Shown here piece after piece: positions 2,362 to 17,731 of a stretch of 21,008 bases of DNA; within the stretch, counting starts at the first letter, position 1; each line of letters opens with the position of its first letter. Source of the DNA: a virus (Duplodnaviria > Heunggongvirae > Uroviricota > Caudoviricetes); IMG/VR virus record IMGVR_UViG_2671180458_000004; one strand, 5' to 3'. A program made the translations under genes and the position numbers. The notes below the pieces were generated by a model, which was given only the letters and a program-made list of their open reading frames with translations, had not been told where the DNA came from and made no database searches.

Positions 2362-3494
2362 TATTGCATTTCCTCTTTCATTTTCAGGAACTCGGCTTCG
2401 GTTTTACCCAGCAGATGGGCAGCGGCGATATCTTCAGCCGACAGCGCAGCGGTGGCAGTCTTTTTATCCGGCACGGTCACGGTGTCGGTCTGAAGGCCGG
2501 TCAGGGCCGCAACCGGCTGTCGGGCGTCAAGCTGTGCAGAAAGTGCCGCAACACCAATCTGCCCACCCAGTTGTTCCAGATAGCCGCGTTCGCTTTTGAA
2601 GATGCGCCCTTCGGATTCAGCCTTGTCCAGCACCTGCTCCAGTGTGGTGCTGCCGTGCTGTGCCGACAGCGCAACGTATTCGGTACGCAGGGCGTTATAC
2701 GTTTCAACGGGCACGTATTTCGTCAGATCAATACTGCCTCCAGCCGGTGTGCCTTTTGCGGTTTCCAGCTCTGCCGACAGACTGGCGACCTGTGTTTTCA
2801 GGTTGTCGTGTGCATCCGCACGGGTTTTGATCCCGGTGAGTGCAGACAGCGCCGCCGTGCCCAGCTCCGGCGTAAATTCGTCACCGTCAGCCACGGTCAG
2901 ACCGAGCGCCGTCAGCAACTGGCGTAATTGCTCATTCATGGGGTGTTGCTCCTGAGAAGGGGAAACTACATAGAGATCGTCAGCACTGAGTGCTGCGACA
3001 GGGTTCATACCCGTAATACCTGGATCATTCGTCAGGGAAGCCATGCGCAACAGGTAGGGTTCCCCGGTGTCAGCGAAATAATGCATATACGCAGACAGAT
3101 AGGCATATTCACGGTCATCAATATGTTTTTGGGCCTGCGGCGTCCATTCAGGTTTAATGAAAATCCCCTGACCCTCACGCCATTCGATGTTTTCCGGCTT
3201 AACCCAACCTGCGGCAATGGCCTTAAATCCGTTTTTCTGCGCATTCATGGAGTGATGGTCATAATCAATCAGTAACGGCTGATTCAGGGCGGAAAGCCCG
3301 GCTTTCATCCGGTTGCAGGCGGATTCGTTAATCAGCCAGCCTTCAGCCGGTTTTTCCGGGCGACCGTCACGGGCCTTTACCCTGCCTGCTGGCAGTAACT
3401 GACACCATCCGTCGCCGGATGCAGTCAGCGAAGCTGAAAGCACGGCTAAACCAGAGGGGCGATTTGCGTCTTTTGGGTGATTTTCTGTCTTCAT
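2361..3494 (-). CDS. I: Mu I-like head protease/scaffold protein (gp32-like)
   Basis: 377 aa; stop overlaps the T start (TAATG); no clear SD at the listed start, so the true start may differ. Confidence 0.85.
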   Translation of the reverse strand: MKTENHPKDANRPSGLAVLSASLTASGDGWCQLLPAGRVKARDGRPEKPAEGWLINESACNRMKAGLSALNQPLLIDYDHHSMNAQKNGFKAIAAGWVKPENIEWREGQGIFIKPEWTPQAQKHIDDREYAYLSAYMHYFADTGEPYLLRMASLTNDPGITGMNPVAALSADDLYVVSPSQEQHPMNEQLRQLLTALGLTVADGDEFTPELGTAALSALTGIKTRADAHDNLKTQVASLSAELETAKGTPAGGSIDLTKYVPVETYNALRTEYVALSAQHGSTTLEQVLDKAESEGRIFKSERGYLEQLGGQIGVAALSAQLDARQPVAALTGLQTDTVTVPDKKTATAALSAEDIAAAHLLGKTEAEFLKMKEEMQ

Positions 3495-3669
3495 ACCGGC
3501 AGCATAAGCCGGGAATTTTCAGGGCGGGTTTTGCGGGATTTCAGGAAGTATTTTCAGGGAAAAATGCAAAGGCGCTTCACGCAGATTTTAAAGCCCGTTA
3601 AATACAGGTTAGAAAATCACGACACGCGCCTGAAGGGGGTAAGGTAATGCATTTGCATACCTTAAACAA
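3495..3669 (-). promoter_or_regulatory. Candidate late promoter region upstream of I, with three direct TTTCAGG repeats
   Basis: 175-bp ORF-free gap; TTTCAGG on the plus strand at 3517-3523, 3539-3545 and 3552-3558; short inverted repeat ATGCA-TT-TGCAT at 3647-3658; position corresponds to Mu late promoter P_I. Confidence 0.4.
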
Positions 3670-4170: not shown

Positions 4171-4265
4171 AAATAAACAGGCGGTCAGTGTACGCTTAAC
4201 TGGTAAAGTCGGTGCCTGCCTCCGGGTGGATCATGTATGCGGGTTCGACCCCCGCCACTGACCGT
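4171..4265. other. Structured element in the F-G gap: long closing stem plus an inner hairpin with a tRNA T-arm-like loop; terminator-like on the minus strand
   Basis: Plus strand: GTCAGTG (4184-4190) pairs perfectly with CACTGAC (4256-4262); inner hairpin GCGGG-TTCGACC-CCCGC (4239-4255). Minus strand: the structure is followed by CTGTTTATTTTATATT. Confidence 0.35.
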
Positions 4266-9416: not shown

Positions 9417-9707
9417 TTACCCCCTTGCGCGTGGTTTCTTCACACCCGGAACGCAGGCCCGGCCTTCCGCCACATCCTGCCCCCGGCCGGTCAGCTCTGC
9501 GATGAAATAACCGTTAATCAGAACGCGTTTGCGCACCAGTCCCTGCTCGGCAAGCCAGGCAATGTGGGTGTGAACGGTGTCGCGGGACACGCGGTGGCCG
9601 TAATCATCCAGACAGTCCTGGAGCACGGATTCACCCAGTTCACCGTTGTAATCTGCCAGCGACCGCAGAATGACCAGACGCTGATCTTCAGTAATGAAAT
9701 CACTCAT
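9417..9707 (-). CDS. Mu gp26-like small protein (96 aa), possible winged-helix fold
   Basis: Position between the gp25-like gene and terminase; ATGA coupling at its start; assignment positional. Confidence 0.6.
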   Translation of the reverse strand: MSDFITEDQRLVILRSLADYNGELGESVLQDCLDDYGHRVSRDTVHTHIAWLAEQGLVRKRVLINGYFIAELTGRGQDVAEGRACVPGVKKPRARG

Positions 9708-10012
9708 TGCGTTTTTTTCCTTACAGCCTGCTCCAGCAGCAGTTCGTTCTGATAGGAGACAGAGCGGAGCGTGGCGTTCGTGGTTTTCAGTTCACCCCGC
9801 AGGGTCACGATTTCCACATTCAGACGGTTGACCTCGGCTTCTGTCGGCAGTGACGACAGGCGGGTTTCCACCTTCTCAACGCGGTCGGAGAGTTTTTCAA
9901 AGGCCTCGCGGGGGACAAACGTTTTGCGCATCAGCGCCATGAATATCCCGCCAGCGGTTGCCGTCGCCGAAAGGATCGGCACAACATAATCTTTAACGAT
10001 GCTGACCCACAT
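9704..10012 (-). CDS. Mu gp25-like membrane-tethered protein (DUF2730-like), candidate releasin
   Basis: 102 aa; N-terminal hydrophobic helix then a coiled-coil-like cytoplasmic part; sits where Mu gp25 lies; 20-nt overlap with the upstream gene. Confidence 0.6.
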   Translation of the reverse strand: MWVSIVKDYVVPILSATATAGGIFMALMRKTFVPREAFEKLSDRVEKVETRLSSLPTEAEVNRLNVEIVTLRGELKTTNATLRSVSYQNELLLEQAVRKKTQ

Positions 10013-10220
10013 GACGGGCCTCCATGATGTTCTGGCAGTTCACACAACGGATGGCATCCGGCACCGCAACAAGACGTGCGGCGGGGATCTCTCCGCCACA
10101 GTCTGCGCAGACACGTCTGCCCGGAGCATCCATTGCCCGGCGCTTACGTGTCAGCCGGTTACAAAGGGCGCGTTCTGATCCCCGCTCCATCACAGCCTGA
10201 GCACGATCTGAATCATCCAT
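9993..10220 (-). CDS. TraR/DksA-family C4 zinc-finger protein (Mu gp24 position)
   Basis: Four Cys as CxxC-x17-CxxC (CADCGGEIPAARLVAVPDAIRCVNC); start moved to the ATG at 10220 (AGGAAA RBS), giving about 75 aa. Confidence 0.8.
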   Translation of the reverse strand: MDDSDRAQAVMERGSERALCNRLTRKRRAMDAPGRRVCADCGGEIPAARLVAVPDAIRCVNCQNIMEARHVGQHR

Positions 10221-10230
10221 ACCTTTTTCC

Positions 10231-10602
10231 TTACTTCGTCTTTCCTGCCGGAACAGCAGGCGTTCCGGCCATATCAGTAAATTCATGTTGTCGCCGCGCC
10301 TCCAGACGACGAATACTGGCCTTGTCCACGTTGCAGTTCTTGATCACCGCCAGCAGTTGCAGGTTGTAAGTGACCGATGCCCCAAACGTGAACGGCTCCG
10401 GCGCAGGAGGGACCAGGCAGTCAGCCAGCCATTCAGCGGGGATCGGCACCGGCTTCACAGGCACGTATTTCACAGACGGCCCGGCGCACCCGGTCAGCCA
10501 CATCATCAGGAACAGGGACAGAGGCCGCAGGCACTGCTGCCAGCGACCGGCGGACAACGCTCTGCTGCTCCTCGCTGTGCTGAATGTTCTGTTGTTTTTC
10601 AT
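10231..10602 (-). CDS. o-spanin (Rz1-like outer-membrane lipoprotein), overlapping the i-spanin gene in another frame
   Basis: Lipobox L-T-G-C followed by a Pro-rich mature region with C-terminal cysteines; starts inside the i-spanin gene and runs past its stop. The ATG at 10602 (GAGG upstream) gives an unusually long pre-lipobox region; an in-frame TTG near 10557 is an alternative. Confidence 0.6.
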   Translation of the reverse strand: MKNNRTFSTARSSRALSAGRWQQCLRPLSLFLMMWLTGCAGPSVKYVPVKPVPIPAEWLADCLVPPAPEPFTFGASVTYNLQLLAVIKNCNVDKASIRRLEARRQHEFTDMAGTPAVPAGKTK

Positions 10603-10783
10603 TCGTGGCCGCCTCACTGATTTGTGAAATGAGTTGCAGGGTGTGCTGCTGATTTGCCAGCACCTGACGCGCCTCATCCCGCTCACGCACAAGCACCTGA
10701 TTATTGTCTTCAAGGCGCTGTGTCTTCTGGTGCATTCCCCATATCGCGGCAACCAGTACAGCGATAATCCCCAGCGCCGCCAT
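10433..10783 (-). CDS. i-spanin (Rz-like inner-membrane spanin subunit)
   Basis: N-terminal TM segment then a long coiled-coil-like periplasmic region. The listed ORF start at 10954 would overlap lys by 59 nt, so the ATG at 10783 is taken; a GTG near 10822 is an alternative. Confidence 0.6.
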   Translation of the reverse strand: MAALGIIAVLVAAIWGMHQKTQRLEDNNQVLVRERDEARQVLANQQHTLQLISQISEAATNEKQQNIQHSEEQQSVVRRSLAAVPAASVPVPDDVADRVRRAVCEIRACEAGADPR

Positions 10784-10895
10784 GCACGCCCCGGCAATCA
10801 GGGCCGGTAAGGCATTATTCACCGCAGCCACAGGACACCCCGTAACAGCAGTACCGCACACAGCAGCGCTATCATGAGCGGTCGCCAGAAGCGGT

Positions 10896-11396
10896 TCAGA
10901 CTTTCGGCAAGTCGTAGCGACATAACCATTCATCCGCCGAACGGCGGGCCTCAAGGCCGGGGAGTTTCACCCCCTTTGAATAAATCCAGCGGATATACTG
11001 CTTACAGGACGCGGGCATCTGCCCGGCATTGATCAGGCGCAGAAGCGTGGAGTTGCGGAAGTTCGTTTCACCGGCCCAGAAGATCCACGAAGCCAGCGCC
11101 ACCGTCTGACCACGGGTAAGCGGCACCTGAACACGCCGATCAATGGCCGCAAAGGCCCATTTCATGTCCTTTTCCAGCAGTTCCAGGCATTCTTCATCCG
11201 TCAGGGTCATACCCGGTTTCACATCCGGGCCGGTATGGCCGTAACAGATGGTGGGTGTACCGGTGGGATCGATATACGTGGAGTTTTCTTTCCCTTCCCA
11301 GTAACCGGTGTAATGCGTGGCAATCGTGAACGTCCCGGCACCGGCCAGAACAAGGGCAATCAGCTTTTTACGCAGTGGTGCGGGGAGTTTTGGCAT
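10896..11396 (-). CDS. lys: Endolysin, T4-lysozyme-like (GH24) with N-terminal signal-anchor-release domain
   Basis: 166 aa; basic N-terminus MPKLPAPLRKK followed by a Gly/Ala-rich weakly hydrophobic stretch; catalytic spacing E-x8-D-x5-T in YWEGKENSTYIDPTGTPT. Confidence 0.9.
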   Translation of the reverse strand: MPKLPAPLRKKLIALVLAGAGTFTIATHYTGYWEGKENSTYIDPTGTPTICYGHTGPDVKPGMTLTDEECLELLEKDMKWAFAAIDRRVQVPLTRGQTVALASWIFWAGETNFRNSTLLRLINAGQMPASCKQYIRWIYSKGVKLPGLEARRSADEWLCRYDLPKV

Positions 11397-11962: not shown

Positions 11963-12472
11963 TTAACGGGGAAGTGATTTTTCATACTGCCTGCAAACGG
12001 CGTCATACCCCATCAGCGTGCGTTCGGGCATTCCCATCGCGGCCAGCATTTTGCGGCGGTGCCATCGCTTGAGACGCTCCAGCACATCTGAGGCCAGGGC
12101 GGGGTGTTGCTCCAGCCACTGCCAGTTTGCCACACCTTCGCCGCCGTTTTGCGCGGCCGTCTGCGATTTCACCCAGCGGTTAAGGGCGGTTTCCGCACCA
12201 TCAGAGATAAAGCCCTGCCGGTGCATCACCTTCCAGATGGCGCGAATTTTAGCGGTCACCGTACCCGGTTTTAAGGCCCGGTTAACCGGGTTCTGACGCA
12301 CTTTAAAACCGCGTTTTTTGAAAACATCCAGCACGCGGGACAACTCATCCGGTGACATATCCCGGCAGCTGGTTTTGCCGGTGGCTGCCAGCAGCACGAA
12401 TGTATAAGTCTCATCATCCAGGGCAAGCTCGCGCTTTGCCACATGAATGGCGGATATCAGTTTTCCTCTCAT
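11963..12472 (-). CDS. gemA: GemA-family protein (Mu gp16-like, DUF1018)
   Basis: 169 aa; N-terminal MRGKLISAIHVAKRELALDDETY pattern recalled as typical of Mu GemA homologs; sits just upstream of mor as in Mu. Confidence 0.8.
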   Translation of the reverse strand: MRGKLISAIHVAKRELALDDETYTFVLLAATGKTSCRDMSPDELSRVLDVFKKRGFKVRQNPVNRALKPGTVTAKIRAIWKVMHRQGFISDGAETALNRWVKSQTAAQNGGEGVANWQWLEQHPALASDVLERLKRWHRRKMLAAMGMPERTLMGYDAVCRQYEKSLPR

Positions 12473-12765
12473 ACCGTATTTACCTTTTTACGGACATGGA
12501 AAGCCTTTTCTGCCTCATCCCACCGGGCATGGTGTGTTGGCGGAATAATCATTATGTGCCAGCCATCTCTGGTTGTTATCCGGCAGAAAAATTCACCGCT
12601 ATATAACACAATGGCCTGCTGAATGAGCGCATCAGCCGCCCGTTCAACCGGATATCTTTTATCAAAAAAGCAGATGATTTTTCGACATAACCACCGGGTA
12701 ATAACAAATGCACCGAAAAAGGATGTGATATATAAGCACCAGAACAACAGAGAACTATTGTCCAT
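12469..12765 (-). CDS. Hypothetical protein with N-terminal transmembrane helix (98 aa)
   Basis: AAGGAGAAAG RBS; hydrophobic N-terminus LLFWCLYITSFFGAFVITRWL; ATGA coupling into gemA. Confidence 0.6.
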   Translation of the reverse strand: MDNSSLLFWCLYITSFFGAFVITRWLCRKIICFFDKRYPVERAADALIQQAIVLYSGEFFCRITTRDGWHIMIIPPTHHARWDEAEKAFHVRKKVNTV

Positions 12766-12952: not shown

Positions 12953-13280
12953 TTGCTTTATCCTCCATGCTGGACAGAATCATATGTATTAATGTCGGGC
13001 GTGGAGATATACGCATTTCATTAAGCGTCTGAAGGGCAGCAACAGCTGCCTGTTTATCGGTGCCTTTGGCTATCTCTGCAAGAGAATGCACAATCCATAA
13101 CGGACTTAACGCCACGGCTGAATCCAGAATCATGTCATCCATAATAATTTCTGGCATATCCCGCTTGTCACATTCTTTATCTATAAAAGAAACGATTTTT
13201 TCTGCATCTTCCGGTTTCATGCCTCCGGCGATGAGAATTTTACGATATTCATAAGGCGATCTTAATTCAATACTCATCAT
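12945..13280 (-). CDS. Hypothetical acidic protein (111 aa)
   Basis: GGTGA-type RBS immediately upstream of ATGATG; lies in the low-GC stretch. Confidence 0.6.
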   Translation of the reverse strand: MMSIELRSPYEYRKILIAGGMKPEDAEKIVSFIDKECDKRDMPEIIMDDMILDSAVALSPLWIVHSLAEIAKGTDKQAAVAALQTLNEMRISPRPTLIHMILSSMEDKANE

Positions 13281-13292
13281 TCACCTGCCTGT

Positions 13293-13661
13293 TTAATCAG
13301 TTTCCAGTGCTTTGCTACGGGCAACAGCCTCACACTCAAAAAATACCGACTCCGGCACACGCTCCTTTAATTCACGAACAAGAAAATCATTAACGAGCTC
13401 ATGACGTCTTATATTTCTTTCCTTTTCCTCCTGGCGCAATACAGCAAGGCGGTATTCAACAGTCCGGCGTTGTTTCTGAAAGACAGCCAGTGCTTTTCTG
13501 GCAGAGTTACGCCATGTATCATCGCCACAGGGTTCGTATTCAAGCTGAAATTTAATCTCTTCAATGGTTTCTTTTATTTTTGCCAGCAAGCTAAGACAGT
13601 CGCTGATTGTCTTCAGTTTTTCATTATCAATATAACTTCTCACGCATTCACCTCCCGTCAT
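13293..13661 (-). CDS. Hypothetical protein, probably coiled-coil (about 122 aa)
   Basis: ORF 13293..13685 begins at a GTG; the ATG at 13661 forms an ATGA overlap with the upstream stop and is preferred. Heptad-like charged pattern in the C-terminal half. Confidence 0.55.
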   Translation of the reverse strand: MTGGECVRSYIDNEKLKTISDCLSLLAKIKETIEEIKFQLEYEPCGDDTWRNSARKALAVFQKQRRTVEYRLAVLRQEEKERNIRRHELVNDFLVRELKERVPESVFFECEAVARSKALETD

Positions 13662-13969
13662 TCCGGTAAAGCTGAAATATGACACCAGTGCGTCACCTGT
13701 CCGTCCTCATCTTCAAGGCAGGCTCCGGTTTCTTCATCAACAAAAAAGCCTTCATACCCCATATGGCCGATGCGCAGTTCCTGCCTGTGACCATACTGAA
13801 CAATCAGCACGACAGCCTCCATATCAGGCGGGAAAGCATCATTCAGTGAATGCCAGGGATAACCGCGCAAATCCCCGAAATAAACACCGGTCAGCGTTCC
13901 GCCACAGACCGGCATTCCGGCGGCACACACAAGAGGTTCATCTGATTCAACAAATAAGGTGGTTATCAT
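13658..13969 (-). CDS. Hypothetical strongly acidic protein (103 aa)
   Basis: ATGA-coupled start; many more acidic than basic residues by manual count; C-terminal EDEDGQVTHWCHISALPE. Confidence 0.6.
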   Translation of the reverse strand: MITTLFVESDEPLVCAAGMPVCGGTLTGVYFGDLRGYPWHSLNDAFPPDMEAVVLIVQYGHRQELRIGHMGYEGFFVDEETGACLEDEDGQVTHWCHISALPE

Positions 13970-14193
13970 GATGCCATTTGCTCCTGTATTTTCTGGCGTA
14001 AGTTTTCAATTTCTGCCGCCATATAAAAACCAATTTTGCTCCAGACATCAGCATCATCACCATGTTCTTCCAGCTCCATTACCGCCATTAAACACGCATC
14101 CTGCCAGTCACTGCTGTTATCAGTTACCGCCACTGAAAATGATGTACTGTCATGTCTGTTAATTATGACGACTGGCTTTTCAATTTTTCTCAT
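13966..14193 (-). CDS. Hypothetical small acidic protein (75 aa)
   Basis: GGGAGG about 6 nt upstream; ATGA coupling to the next gene; rich in Asp/Glu. Confidence 0.6.
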   Translation of the reverse strand: MRKIEKPVVIINRHDSTSFSVAVTDNSSDWQDACLMAVMELEEHGDDADVWSKIGFYMAAEIENLRQKIQEQMAS

Positions 14194-14375
14194 TTATGCC
14201 TCCCGGAAATACGAATGTATATACCGATGAGAAAATCCATAATAAACAGGAAGAGCGACATCCTGATAAAGAACCAAATGTCAGGCATCATGGACAGGTT
14301 TCCTGTAATCGCAAATATAAAACCAATCCCCAACACCGGAACGATAATTGCGAAAAATATAAGTCGTTTAATCAT
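14190..14375 (-). CDS. Small predicted membrane protein (61 aa, two hydrophobic helices)
   Basis: Sequence is almost entirely two hydrophobic stretches separated by a short polar loop; ATGA overlap with the upstream stop. Confidence 0.6.
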   Translation of the reverse strand: MIKRLIFFAIIVPVLGIGFIFAITGNLSMMPDIWFFIRMSLFLFIMDFLIGIYIRISGRHK

Positions 14376-14923
14376 GGCATTAACTCCCGTAATACAACAT
14401 CCTCGGCAGTCCGGCGATGGTGATAAATAAAATTCACCGTACTCTCGGATAATTCAAATTTCTCGCCTATTTCCCGGAAGGTAAGACGTCGTGGTGATTC
14501 AGCATCCCGTAATTCACGAATAAGATGAACATCATCGTCAGGTATACGGGTGAAGGGCAGCAATTCTCCGTATTTTTTCATGCTTACGCCAATATATCGC
14601 GCCCGATTGTGGACAGAATCCCGGTCTCGCCCCAGATATTCTCCTATTTGCTTACCGGTCATCGTTCTGGCATTTTTTCGGATAAATTTATCTTCATCAT
14701 GTTTAAATCTTGGACGTTTGCATTTGAGCAACTCCGGGTAAGTACCGCGTAATAAAACAATCCGGTTATGTACACCCCAGAAACTTCTTTTTACCCTGAC
14801 AGCAATATCCTTAACCGGGGTGGATGGATAAAGCGCAATCAGCAGTGCATCTTCTTCAGGTGTCCACGCACGGACATGAGCGGGTGCACGGCCTTTTCGC
14901 CCCATGGGTTGTAAAATCATCAT
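14372..14923 (-). CDS. Putative DNA-binding protein with several HTH-like segments (183 aa)
   Basis: AGGGGGTGA RBS; Myb/SANT-like WTPEEDALLIALY near the N-terminus, a central TGKQIGEYLGRDRDSVHNRARYIGV and a C-terminal LTFREIGEKFELSESTVNFIY segment. Confidence 0.65.
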   Translation of the reverse strand: MMILQPMGRKGRAPAHVRAWTPEEDALLIALYPSTPVKDIAVRVKRSFWGVHNRIVLLRGTYPELLKCKRPRFKHDEDKFIRKNARTMTGKQIGEYLGRDRDSVHNRARYIGVSMKKYGELLPFTRIPDDDVHLIRELRDAESPRRLTFREIGEKFELSESTVNFIYHHRRTAEDVVLRELMP

Positions 14924-14926
14924 ACA

Positions 14927-15442
14927 TCACCCCCTGACTCGCTTTTCAGCAGCATAAAACTCATCAGACAGAATTTCGGTCATTTTCCGTTTTGCGGAAT
15001 CATCTTCGCACTGAAGGTAAATAACATCGTCAACGCAGAACCACTTCACGGGACCATGCAATATTGCTGAAAAGTCAATGCCCAGCCAGAACAACAGGGC
15101 ATCGGTTCTGGCATACGTGACGGGCGAATATTCACGCCACAGACTGTTAAGTTCGTCAGAGGCAACGCGCAGGGCTTTGGGAATACGTGATGTGCGCGGT
15201 GTGCAGCTCCAGCCATTCGACGCAGTCGGTTTTCGCCATAAGTCGCGATGAAAAGGATATTTGTCATCCATAAAGCGCAGCCCTTTAAAACAAAAGCCAC
15301 TGATACCGGATACAAATACCGACCGGCACGCAACATTCAGCACGGCCTCAAGGCGTTTTGCCTCATCCTTAACTTTCTGGCAGTCCTGCTGATATTTTTT
15401 CCACGCGGCCAGCGCGGAAGGGTTTGATGTTTTAAAGAACAT
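14927..15442 (-). CDS. Hypothetical protein (171 aa)
   Basis: Translationally coupled to the upstream gene (TAATG); no recognisable motif. Confidence 0.65.
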   Translation of the reverse strand: MFFKTSNPSALAAWKKYQQDCQKVKDEAKRLEAVLNVACRSVFVSGISGFCFKGLRFMDDKYPFHRDLWRKPTASNGWSCTPRTSRIPKALRVASDELNSLWREYSPVTYARTDALLFWLGIDFSAILHGPVKWFCVDDVIYLQCEDDSAKRKMTEILSDEFYAAEKRVRG

Positions 15443-15975
15443 TACGCCACCTCCGCAGATATCCCGGCAGGCGCGGCCGTCCGGTCAACAATCAGGTAAC
15501 GCAGAACACGCGCGGTGATATTCCAGCCGCTTAAACCGCAGATGATGACACCCAGGCGTATGTCGATATACGCCATCACAAACTGGGGCACGCCTTCTTT
15601 CATGGCCTGCTCATCAACTTCAGCCACCACATAAACGGTTTCGCAGGTCAGTACGCCCTGAGCAAATTCCCACGCCATCGACGGAATATCATGCCCCTCA
15701 ATCCACGGCAGGGACTTTCTGAAGCTGCACCACTGAACATCATCAGCCGCACATTCCTGGCTGCATTTGCGACGAACCGGCTGCACCGGGCGGGGACGCG
15801 GAATATCATAAAAACCGTTACATTCCGTCAGCACCCCGGCATCAACCGCATCACGCAGAAAATAAACCATCGAGGATGGCGGCATATTCATTTTTTCAGC
15901 CAGAACACCGCAGGTCAGACGTCCGTAAATACGCAGCCAGTTTTTAACCCCTTCAAGCACTTTTGCATCAATCAT
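15442..15975 (-). CDS. Hypothetical protein (177 aa), possible N-terminal winged-helix-like segment
   Basis: GGAGG about 8 nt upstream; stop and next start overlap as TAATG; the helix-turn-helix impression is by eye only. Confidence 0.65.
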   Translation of the reverse strand: MIDAKVLEGVKNWLRIYGRLTCGVLAEKMNMPPSSMVYFLRDAVDAGVLTECNGFYDIPRPRPVQPVRRKCSQECAADDVQWCSFRKSLPWIEGHDIPSMAWEFAQGVLTCETVYVVAEVDEQAMKEGVPQFVMAYIDIRLGVIICGLSGWNITARVLRYLIVDRTAAPAGISAEVA

Positions 15976-15978
15976 GAA

Positions 15979-16521
15979 TTATTCCTCCGTCAGCGCCACA
16001 TATTCAGAATGTTTAATTTCCTGGCATTCTTCAGGAATACACCCGTTTATTTCCCTGCCATAAGCGCCTACTTTAAACACCACGCACAGGGCATCACGGG
16101 AGAGTGACGGGGTCCACCAGGAGTCCGTGTTAAACATGGAGGGGATTCTCATTACCCCCAGCTTTTCACAGAGCCAGACAAGGAAATCAGGACGCTTTCT
16201 TAACTCGCGTTCAGCGGCTTCAACCATTGCGGCAATCGCCGGACCTTCAGGGCATGACTCATCAGGTCTGGCAATAAAGCACGGTCCGCCCCCGATAAAA
16301 GCCACATCATCGCGCTTACGCCAGCCCGCAGGCAGAGAACCAGAAAAATAAAACTCACTGATTACGTCCATGGCGAACGGCTTTAAGCGCAATCCGGCAG
16401 CGCCTGTATTTTTCAGTAATGCCCGAAGAATACTGTTGCGTAGCGGTAAAACAGTCTGTTGATATTTGGTGAAATATTTATTTGTCTGTACACGGTCTAA
16501 TTTGAAATAAAAATATGCCAT
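15979..16521 (-). CDS. Hypothetical protein (180 aa), accessory block
   Basis: AAGGAACAGGA RBS; first gene after the 97-bp gap downstream of gam; no family recognised. Confidence 0.65.
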   Translation of the reverse strand: MAYFYFKLDRVQTNKYFTKYQQTVLPLRNSILRALLKNTGAAGLRLKPFAMDVISEFYFSGSLPAGWRKRDDVAFIGGGPCFIARPDESCPEGPAIAAMVEAAERELRKRPDFLVWLCEKLGVMRIPSMFNTDSWWTPSLSRDALCVVFKVGAYGREINGCIPEECQEIKHSEYVALTEE

Positions 16522-16618
16522 ATTTCCTGTTCCTTATTTTCAGTTTACAGGCGCAGGCAGTCCCCTGACGCGAGCGCCATAATTAAAACGAAGTGATATT
16601 TAAAGATTTAATGCGGTG

Positions 16619-17149
16619 TTATTTATTCAGTCCGGCGTCCTGTTCAAAAGGCTCGACATGAAAACTTTCAGCACCTTTATTCACCTTAATACCAGCAACC
16701 CCTTTCACCGCATCCGGCTCCGCCAGGACAGCTTGCTTATTCACTTCCTCTTTCGTGCGGATGAAGCGCTCAAGCCCCATACGACGCAGCATTTCAATCA
16801 CACCTTCCACATCACGACTGACGCTGCATGATGGATTTCCCAGCCGCCATGACACCGTTCCGGTGGTCAGATTGGCAGTTTTGGTTTCGCCGCCGTTCGT
16901 CAGCTCATTGCGGTTGGTTTTACACCAGTCATGAATCCCCTTAAAAAGCACTTTGATTTCTTTTTTAAGGTTTTCAATCTGCGGCGTATAACGGGCGGTG
17001 ATTTCTGCCACTTCATCATTCATTGCCGTTTCCAGGCGCAGCGCCTCTCGCTGAATATCGCCCAGGGTGCGGATATCGCGGCTGACCTCTTCACGGGTCT
17101 GCGGTGCCGCCTCTGCTGCGGCCTTTAATTTTGTAACGCGTTTTGCCAT
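16619..17149 (-). CDS. gam: Host-nuclease inhibitor Gam (Mu Gam family, Ku-like DNA end-binding protein)
   Basis: 176 aa, the size of Mu Gam; sequence recalled as Gam family; AAGGAAAAA RBS upstream of the ATG. Confidence 0.85.
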   Translation of the reverse strand: MAKRVTKLKAAAEAAPQTREEVSRDIRTLGDIQREALRLETAMNDEVAEITARYTPQIENLKKEIKVLFKGIHDWCKTNRNELTNGGETKTANLTTGTVSWRLGNPSCSVSRDVEGVIEMLRRMGLERFIRTKEEVNKQAVLAEPDAVKGVAGIKVNKGAESFHVEPFEQDAGLNK

Positions 17150-17160
17150 TTTGTTTTTCC

Positions 17161-17454
17161 TTATTGCAATGTATCTGGTCCGTTCTGAACAGAACGGCGT
17201 TCAACGGAGCTGCTTACCCCCATGGCCTGCATGGAACCCTGTAGTTCATCTGTCAGAAACTGAATGATTGTGGGGCTGTGATATTTAAGAATTTGTGCAT
17301 AAACATCACAGGGTCCTGCCGGTCTGTTCTCTGTATCACGTTCGATTTTTACCGTGGCAGTAACCCCCTCCGTGATTTCCTTACTATCATTACCGGCTGG
17401 CTTTACTTCATGCATTACGTGGTCAAATTCAAAAATAACGCGTACTTTGCTCAT
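17161..17454 (-). CDS. Hypothetical early protein (about 97 aa), paralog of the adjacent gene
   Basis: Start moved to the second ATG (17454): it aligns with the paralog's N-terminus, has AGGGG about 8 nt upstream and avoids a 23-nt overlap. Confidence 0.6.
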   Translation of the reverse strand: MSKVRVIFEFDHVMHEVKPAGNDSKEITEGVTATVKIERDTENRPAGPCDVYAQILKYHSPTIIQFLTDELQGSMQAMGVSSSVERRSVQNGPDTLQ

Positions 17455-17458
17455 GGAA

Positions 17459-17731
17459 TTACCCCTGTTGATTAAATTCATTACCGTTAATAACCCCGGA
17501 ACTCATGTCCATATCTTTCATGAGCGCACTGGCTTTCATTGCCACAAGTTCAGCAAAGTCTCTGCTTTCCGCGAGCATAACCACCCCAAAAATCATGGCG
17601 GGTCCATCACCTTTCTGCTTTATCCCGGTTGAACGTATGTCCAGACTTACCCCCATGCGCACTGTTCCATCAGCGTTTTTATGGATAACGTGCTCCTTGT
17701 ATTCGAAAATAATGCGTACGACTTTACTCAT
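17459..17731 (-). CDS. Hypothetical early protein (90 aa), paralog of the adjacent gene
   Basis: N-terminus MSKVVRIIFEYKEHVIHK resembles MSKVRVIFEFDHVMHEVK of the 17161..17454 product; C-terminal MKDMDMSSGV versus MQAMGVSSSV. Confidence 0.6.
   Translation of the reverse strand: MSKVVRIIFEYKEHVIHKNADGTVRMGVSLDIRSTGIKQKGDGPAMIFGVVMLAESRDFAELVAMKASALMKDMDMSSGVINGNEFNQQG

Follow-up and report, generated by a model that had tools for sequence, protein, structure and literature searches.

The question raised by this locus is what a membrane protein of only 61 residues does in the early operon of a Mu-like prophage. We analysed it within a 21,008-nt stretch of DNA (the window; IMG/VR record IMGVR_UViG_2671180458_000004), which is a Mu-like E. 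coli prophage of the Sp18 type. The surroundings of the 61-aa ORF showed 98–100% identity to a ‘Mu-like phage’ that lies within an Stx2c phage (LC727881), and the same stretch was 99.9% identical to a prophage of E. coli OkiPb01678; in E. coli O157 Sakai, Sp18 has been predicted to be an intact prophage (PMC2669165). All sizeable plausible ORFs, and every other gene of the window, lie on the minus strand. The PGAP annotation of the OkiPb01678 prophage runs, from upstream to downstream on that strand, from a repressor and a Ner-like HTH gene through transposase A, B (an AAA ATPase), small ORFs, Gam and three proteins of ~175 aa, one with a Mu Gp11 C-terminal domain, to a 183-aa DNA-binding protein, the 61-aa ORF, further small ORFs, GemA (gp16 family) and Mor, and ends with lysozyme, spanins, a TraR/DksA protein, a DUF2730 protein and the head genes. 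The ORF is therefore located in the early operon, after the Gam, gp11_C-domain and gp12-like genes and before GemA and Mor, and the gene order from transposase A to Mor bears out the early accessory operon context proposed in a first-pass annotation of this DNA.

Two features elsewhere in the window were recorded alongside. Just upstream of gam, the genes at 17161–17454 and 17459–17731 (−) look like diverged tandem paralogues, with products that share 26% identity over 86 aligned positions and both start MSKV(V)R(V/I)IFE. A tRNA-like element at 4184–4263 (+), opposite to all genes, lies in a 121-nt gap that separates the virion-morphogenesis gene from the head-morphogenesis gene. It scored 31 bits against the Rfam tRNA model in a local search (gathering score 29) and is called ‘tRNA-OTHER’ by PGAP in NZ_AP042495, and it was missed by ARAGORN and by a whole-window cmscan at the gathering threshold; by eye it has good acceptor and T arms and an odd anticodon region.

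The ORF of interest occupies 14190..14375 (−) and encodes a small predicted helical-hairpin inner-membrane protein, MIKRLIFFAIIVPVLGIGFIFAITGNLSMMPDIWFFIRMSLFLFIMDFLIGIYIRISGRHK (61 aa), identical to the sequence quoted for it in the first-pass annotation. It is not new to RefSeq, where PGAP calls it as WP_062899254.1 (the O157 allele is WP_000595948.1) and where it is annotated as a hypothetical or membrane protein. A Shine-Dalgarno sequence, GGGAG (14384..14388, −), stands 8 nt upstream of the ATG within the 3′ end of the preceding HTH gene and is kept in 17 of 17 related loci. The stop of that gene and the start of the ORF overlap in an ATGA (14372..14375, −), a translational-coupling junction common to all related loci, and a further ATGA (14190..14193, −) joins the stop of the ORF to the start of the following 75-aa gene, with a mosaic breakpoint 11 nt beyond; such overlaps were present at both ends of the ORF in every relative. 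The upstream neighbour (14372..14923, −) is the 183-aa DNA-binding protein with Myb/HTH-like repeats (PHROG 323), and the downstream neighbour (13966..14193, −) is a 75-aa acidic soluble protein that matched no family and accompanies the 61-aa gene in only three complete genomes.

The 183-aa neighbour appears to contain three Myb/SANT- or HTH-like repeats, and its PGAP names vary among AsnC family, SANT/Myb-like and DNA-binding. Segments related to it occur in mycobacteriophage genes annotated as HNH endonuclease or DNA methylase, and a relative is free-standing in a P2-like Citrobacter phage.

Selection on the ORF was assessed across 15 loci with intact copies (the window, the three loci L001–L003 and eleven IMG/VR contigs), which yielded six nucleotide alleles. 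Summed over all allele pairs, the annotated frame had a pN/pS of 0.27, below that of each of the other five (0.56–1.52); pairwise values between alleles were 0.17–0.50, with pS up to 0.40. Given the lowest pN/pS in its own frame, the ribosome-binding site, the ATGA coupling and the PGAP call, the 61-codon ORF is a real gene whose protein is under purifying selection. The expectation that it would be conserved in relatives also held, with copies in about 108 complete E. coli genomes. Two long ORFs overlap it on the plus strand (14152..14430 and 14196..14423), and reversed hydrophobic codons seldom yield stops, which could suggest a chance ORF or the shadow of a plus-strand feature. We consider a non-gene of this kind extremely improbable, as the annotated frame is the most constrained of the six, all other genes of the window are on the minus strand, the ribosome-binding site and coupling are present and Rfam gave no match; the plus-strand ORFs are themselves shadows of the hydrophobic coding region.

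The first-pass annotation had described the protein as almost entirely two hydrophobic helices, and the predictions agreed. Kyte-Doolittle (KD) averages over 19-residue windows peaked at 2.92 for residues 5–23 and reached about 2.0 at residues 33–54, and among the products encoded between B and Mor the 61-aa protein alone had two segments above threshold. An AlphaFold2 model based on 14 homologues placed two helices in a helix-turn-helix hairpin (mean pLDDT 73), at model residues 2–26 and 30–58, which correspond to protein residues 3–27 and 31–59 because the model was built without the first Met. Topology prediction thus returned two transmembrane (TM) segments where the annotation had allowed that there might be none. 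TM1 spans residues 5–24 (LIFFAIIVPVLGIGFIFAIT; 14304..14363, −), combines the KD maximum with a modelled helix and carries a G18xxx[A/S]22 small-residue motif. TM2 spans residues 33–55 (14211..14279, −) and, according to the alignment and helical wheel, is nearly invariant, with R38 and a polar stripe of S40 and D47 (or D51).

Charged residues are placed at the two ends (K3 and R4 at the N-terminus; R55, R59 and K61 at the C-terminus), with D32 in the eight-residue connection between the helices. This placement, together with the positive-inside rule, fits an N-in/C-in topology in the inner membrane, and by the same reasoning residues 25–32 (GNLSMMPD; net charge −1; 14280..14303, −) are predicted to form a short periplasmic loop. 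About 11 residues would then be cytoplasmic (about 4 + 7) and 8 periplasmic. A signal peptide or lipoprotein was considered and rejected, since the protein lacks both Cys and an AxA-type cleavage site and has a hydrophobic stretch of 20 residues. Translation has a single Met start, the next Met being residue 29. An N-terminal TM helix had also been assigned to the product of the 98-aa gene at 12469..12765 (−; PHROG 17269), which is conserved in O157 Sp18-type prophages and lies directly upstream of GemA with a 4-nt overlap. That assignment received moderate support, from one window at residues 5–23 that reached only KD 1.82 and is followed by R24, R28 and K29.

Homologues of the 61-aa protein were confined to a narrow host range. 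A word-indexed search of 5.8 billion clusters returned 16 clusters, all from E. coli or Shigella, and an HMMER profile search of 1.84 billion representatives returned the protein’s own cluster, a frameshifted copy and one spurious match. The extras across both searches were two frameshifted sequences (P0016 and P0017) and a spurious low-complexity one (P0018); the prophage genes on the P0016 contig were split into many short calls, which fits assembly errors. Searches with the protein against Pfam (E ≤ 0.1), NCBIfam, PADLOC and PDB sequences gave no match, and Foldseek against viral structures gave nothing at E ≤ 1, as expected for a bare hairpin. With the neighbours included, PADLOC reported nothing except a weak homing-endonuclease-like match of the HTH protein; Rfam had no match at the gene, and no antitoxin or antisense RNA was detected. 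No family of toxins, holins, Imm or defence proteins was matched, and the first-pass suggestion of a host-killing, superinfection-exclusion or toxin-like factor is a prior expectation. A search of the literature on Sp18, on Mu-like small membrane proteins and on WP_000595948 found no functional study. Among the 1.84 billion representatives, the family thus appears as an orphan restricted to Mu-like prophages of E. coli and Shigella.

The sole signal from outside was PHROG 19804 (E 4e-4, 21 bits), which comprises 51-aa proteins from Teubervirus phages of Lactococcus (LW31 gp10, for example). Ten of 14 family members matched it, with a best E of 5e-5; the sequences are hydrophobic and of low complexity, the match was driven by hydrophobic composition, and the same relation had an E of about 1 by tblastn at database scale. 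In pairwise comparison the two share FxFA-x-GN[LV][ST]M followed by W-F and a terminal [KR]I[ST], and the LW31 gene lies in an early-type cluster and overlaps by 4 nt the 3′ end of an adjacent RusA-like resolvase gene, whereas the hosts of these phages are Gram-positive. The match is too weak to rely on.

The 186-nt gene was present at 119 places in 108 of 5426 complete E. coli genomes, and the adjacent HTH gene at 251 places in 216. Three arrangements were found: that of the window, with the order HTH-TM61-75-103-130-111... (three genomes); that of O157 Sp18, with HTH-TM61-111...; and that of CV261 and LC727895, in which the HTH gene directly precedes the 103-aa gene, the 4-nt overlap is kept and the 61-aa gene is absent. 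CV261 and the window have HTH genes with 99.8% identity, and the HTH protein of LC727895 is 96% identical to that of the window, yet neither CV261 nor LC727895 has the 61-aa gene. Breakpoints fell at gene junctions, and megablast homology with O157-type prophages stopped at 14183, 11 nt past the ATGA. Since natural prophages exist without it, the 61-aa gene is dispensable, and it is shuffled as a single-gene cassette.

At the downstream junction (14183–14193), the 61-aa ORF is followed in all variants, as represented by L003 and L007–L018, by ATGAGAAAAAT, beyond which the sequences diverge. The ATG at this junction begins, in the O157 type, a 14-codon extension in frame with the annotated 110-aa gene. 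LC727895 (L019), a sister Mu-like prophage without the 61-aa gene, encodes at 3064–3496 a Cys-rich 46-aa homologue of Mu gp13 and a homologue of Mu gp14, neither of which the window has; the difference in content shows that cassettes in the gp12–GemA interval have been swapped extensively.

The early operon of phage Mu encodes no membrane protein, and the only TMD-encoding genes listed for Mu are 19, 20, 23 and 25 (PMC9239132). Mu gp13 is the positional counterpart of the 61-aa protein (60 aa, after gp12, in the same early-operon stretch), and we rejected it as the same gene because it is Cys-rich, soluble and hydrophilic, with no similarity. The Mu membrane proteins outside lysis, gp19 and gp20, are products of middle-operon genes that have no counterpart in the window. 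Travel of the 61-aa gene with the HTH gene beyond Mu-like phages was also considered and rejected, as the P2-like Citrobacter phage Shae_phiSM has an HTH homologue with no small TM ORF after it. Eight other Mu-like phages were sampled for small membrane ORFs in the B–GemA interval. Three of the eight had an unrelated annotated one (PhiKM, 71 aa; KP12, 70 aa with two segments; LPB1, 38 aa), a Vibrio phage had a 108-aa ORF with one borderline hydrophobic window (KD 1.77), and the other four had no annotated candidate in that interval. Judged by these predictions, small membrane proteins are recurrent, non-homologous accessories of the region.

The two TM segments differed in how they vary across the 14-sequence alignment. 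TM1 is variable, with I/V/L swaps and L, W or G at positions 15–17, and keeps a nearly invariant G18 and A or S at position 22. TM2 is essentially invariant at residues 33–46; the exception was R38, replaced by M in one cluster (P0013), so that the charge at this position is not essential. The 3′ end of the gene occurs in two allele types, D47-F-L-I-G51...SGR(H/R)K and N47-L-L-I-D51...TGKHK, such that a membrane-embedded acidic residue is retained but shifted by one helical turn. On a helical wheel the acidic positions 47 and 51 fall at 320 and 0 degrees and S40 at 340 degrees, all within 40 degrees of each other, with R38 opposite this face.

Within TM2, a 39-nt core covering codons W34–M46 (14238..14276, −) is nucleotide-identical in all six alleles. 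Its invariance had P = 0.003 when all variable sites were placed randomly and P = 0.07 when only third codon positions were considered. Crossover between the 5′ and 3′ halves of the alleles falls in this core as well, one 5′ half being paired with either 3′ half (P0004 vs. P0012). An RNA element was considered and set aside, given the marginal third-position result, the lack of an Rfam match and the recombination of gene halves at this point; protein constraint combined with a shared crossover tract is the simpler reading of the sequence.

A crude consensus scan of the minus strand from 13265 to 17300 found no sigma70-like site, and between Gam and GemA on that strand there was no strong terminator-like site, only four weak stems of 5–6 bp. 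The only strong hairpin, with nine base pairs and a T-rich tail (AAATCCCGC...GCGGGATTT; 11958–11935, −), is located between GemA and Mor and may be where the early transcript ends ahead of Mor. Because no internal promoter or terminator was found and translation is coupled to the upstream gene, the scan argues that the 61-aa gene would be read only from the early lytic transcript. Such lytic-only expression would rule out exclusion of the lysogen type and would still be compatible with exclusion of the T4 Imm type.

The lysis cassette of the window (9701–11396, −) is of the holin-less Mu type, with no holin candidate present (cf. PMC9239132). Its lysozyme (10896–11396, −) has a SAR-like N-terminus (LIALVLAGAGTFTIAT / MPKLPAPLRKKLIALVLAGAGTFTIAT); next come an i-spanin, which has a TM segment at its N-terminus, an embedded LysC o-spanin and a TraR/DksA protein. 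The cassette also encodes a DUF2730 protein, similar to the gp25 ‘releasin’, with an N-terminal TM segment.

The reading we tentatively prefer is that the 61-aa protein acts during the lytic phase as an intramembrane binder that excludes other phages or inhibits a host membrane protein; the case for it is possible rather than probable. The gene would be translated from the early (Pe-type) polycistronic transcript, coupled to the upstream HTH gene, and the product would enter the inner membrane as a helical hairpin with its short ends in the cytoplasm and its eight-residue loop in the periplasm. As almost nothing would protrude from the bilayer, any activity must be intramembrane. TM1, which is variable and very hydrophobic, would be an anchor with GxxxA/S as its packing motif, and TM2, as the nearly invariant helix with a polar acidic stripe, would contact a specific inner-membrane partner during lytic development. 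The pairing of a variable TM1 with an invariant, polar-striped TM2 leads us to infer helix-helix recognition of such a partner. As a result, competing phages might be blocked at a membrane step such as DNA entry, or a host membrane protein might be inhibited.

We judge specific binding more likely than non-specific permeabilisation, and TM2 is more conserved than expected of a generic membrane disruptor. Conservation of TM2 is nevertheless a weak pointer to a specific binder, as the known sequences span little diversity, with six alleles at the nucleotide level and 16 protein clusters, and part of the invariance could come from the shared recombination tract. A TM helix with its polar residues on one face would suit a homo-oligomeric pore just as well. 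In the main alternative, the protein would be a pore former resembling a pinholin or GhoT, in which the polar face of TM2 oligomerises and depolarises the inner membrane, with the effect of killing or shutting off the host or of hastening SAR endolysin release where the lysis cassette has no holin. Its size, its two TMDs and its predicted N-in/C-in topology are as in class II holins, the polar and acidic stripe of TM2 could line a pore, and the lysozyme has a SAR-like N-terminus in a cassette that, as in Mu, combines a DUF2730/gp25-like protein with the absence of a holin (PMC9239132). Several observations make such a pore former somewhat unlikely: the gene belongs to the early operon and is some 2.8 kb upstream of the lysozyme, with GemA, Mor and the terminator-like hairpin between them; no Pfam match to a holin, GhoT/OrtT or Hok was found at E ≤ 0.1; TM1 is strongly hydrophobic (KD 2.92) and not SAR-like; there is no dual-start motif; and about half of the related prophages lack the gene. 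Early depolarisation would, in addition, damage transposition-replication.

An unlikely explanation of a different kind is that the protein is translated but functionally neutral, a young T-rich hydrophobic ORF, perhaps of de novo origin, that linkage has maintained. Confinement of the orphan to E. coli and Shigella Mu-like prophages among 1.84 billion representatives, the low regional GC (about 0.39) and the presence/absence polymorphism all agree with a neutral passenger, whereas pN/pS of 0.17–0.5 between alleles at pS up to 0.4 indicates purifying selection, the acidic residue has moved yet stayed on the same helix face, and the ribosome-binding site and coupling are conserved. The coupling would itself be accounted for if the protein tethered or regulated the 183-aa HTH protein in the manner of an anti-sigma factor or connector. 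This partnership would fit the ATGA overlap with the HTH gene in every locus that has the 61-aa gene and the weak matches of the HTH protein to sigma-70 region 4 and ECF-like factors. These matches, however, are far under threshold (19 bits with the cut-off at 24, and 14 with it at 43), cytoplasmic segments of only about 4 and 7 residues leave no room for an anti-sigma domain, the HTH gene is without the 61-aa gene at about half of its places, including the 99.8% identical allele, and the P2-like phage has an HTH homologue with no small TM ORF downstream. We therefore regard a role as partner of the HTH protein as quite improbable.

Among characterised systems, the preferred reading of an intramembrane binder has its nearest parallel in T4 Imm, a small and dispensable phage inner-membrane protein of the early lytic phase that acts at the membrane and blocks the entry of superinfecting DNA. 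The likeness, by analogy, would be one of architecture and timing only, the latter taken from the early-operon position; the 61-aa protein has no Imm_superinfect match (Pfam, E ≤ 0.1), is shorter and has virtually no extramembrane sequence. Class II holins, among them the pinholin S21-68 of phage 21, are similar in length (about 60–70 aa), in having two TMDs with a (predicted) N-in/C-in topology and in their basic C-terminus. Pinholins pair with SAR endolysins, and the prophage of the window has a SAR-like lysozyme. Late expression is characteristic of confirmed holins, and lysis of the Mu type proceeds without a holin (PMC9239132). The 61-aa gene differs from this class in its location in the early operon and not beside the endolysin in the late lysis cassette, in a TM1 that is not SAR-like, in having no dual start and no family match, and in its absence from half of the related prophages. 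GhoT/OrtT and the type I toxins (Hok, TisB and Ibs) are likewise very small hydrophobic inner-membrane peptides, GhoT having two predicted TM helices, but the 61-aa ORF comes without a Pfam or NCBIfam match, an antitoxin or antisense RNA, or a predicted promoter of its own. The gene is an ordinary, uncharacterised small phage membrane accessory gene and not a new kind of system.

[quoted passage not shown] If true, an unrelated orphan gene outside the lysis cassette would have given some ‘holin-less’ Mu-like phages a lysis clock of the holin type. Natural near-isogenic prophages with and without the 61-aa gene make phenotypes cheap to compare. If the protein is instead the intramembrane binder that we tentatively prefer, its 61 residues would offer a compact tool for studying how helices recognise each other in the inner membrane of E. 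coli. Mu-like prophages are common in Shiga-toxin-producing E. coli, and the gene would then be a candidate for lytic-phase superinfection exclusion in Mu-like prophages.
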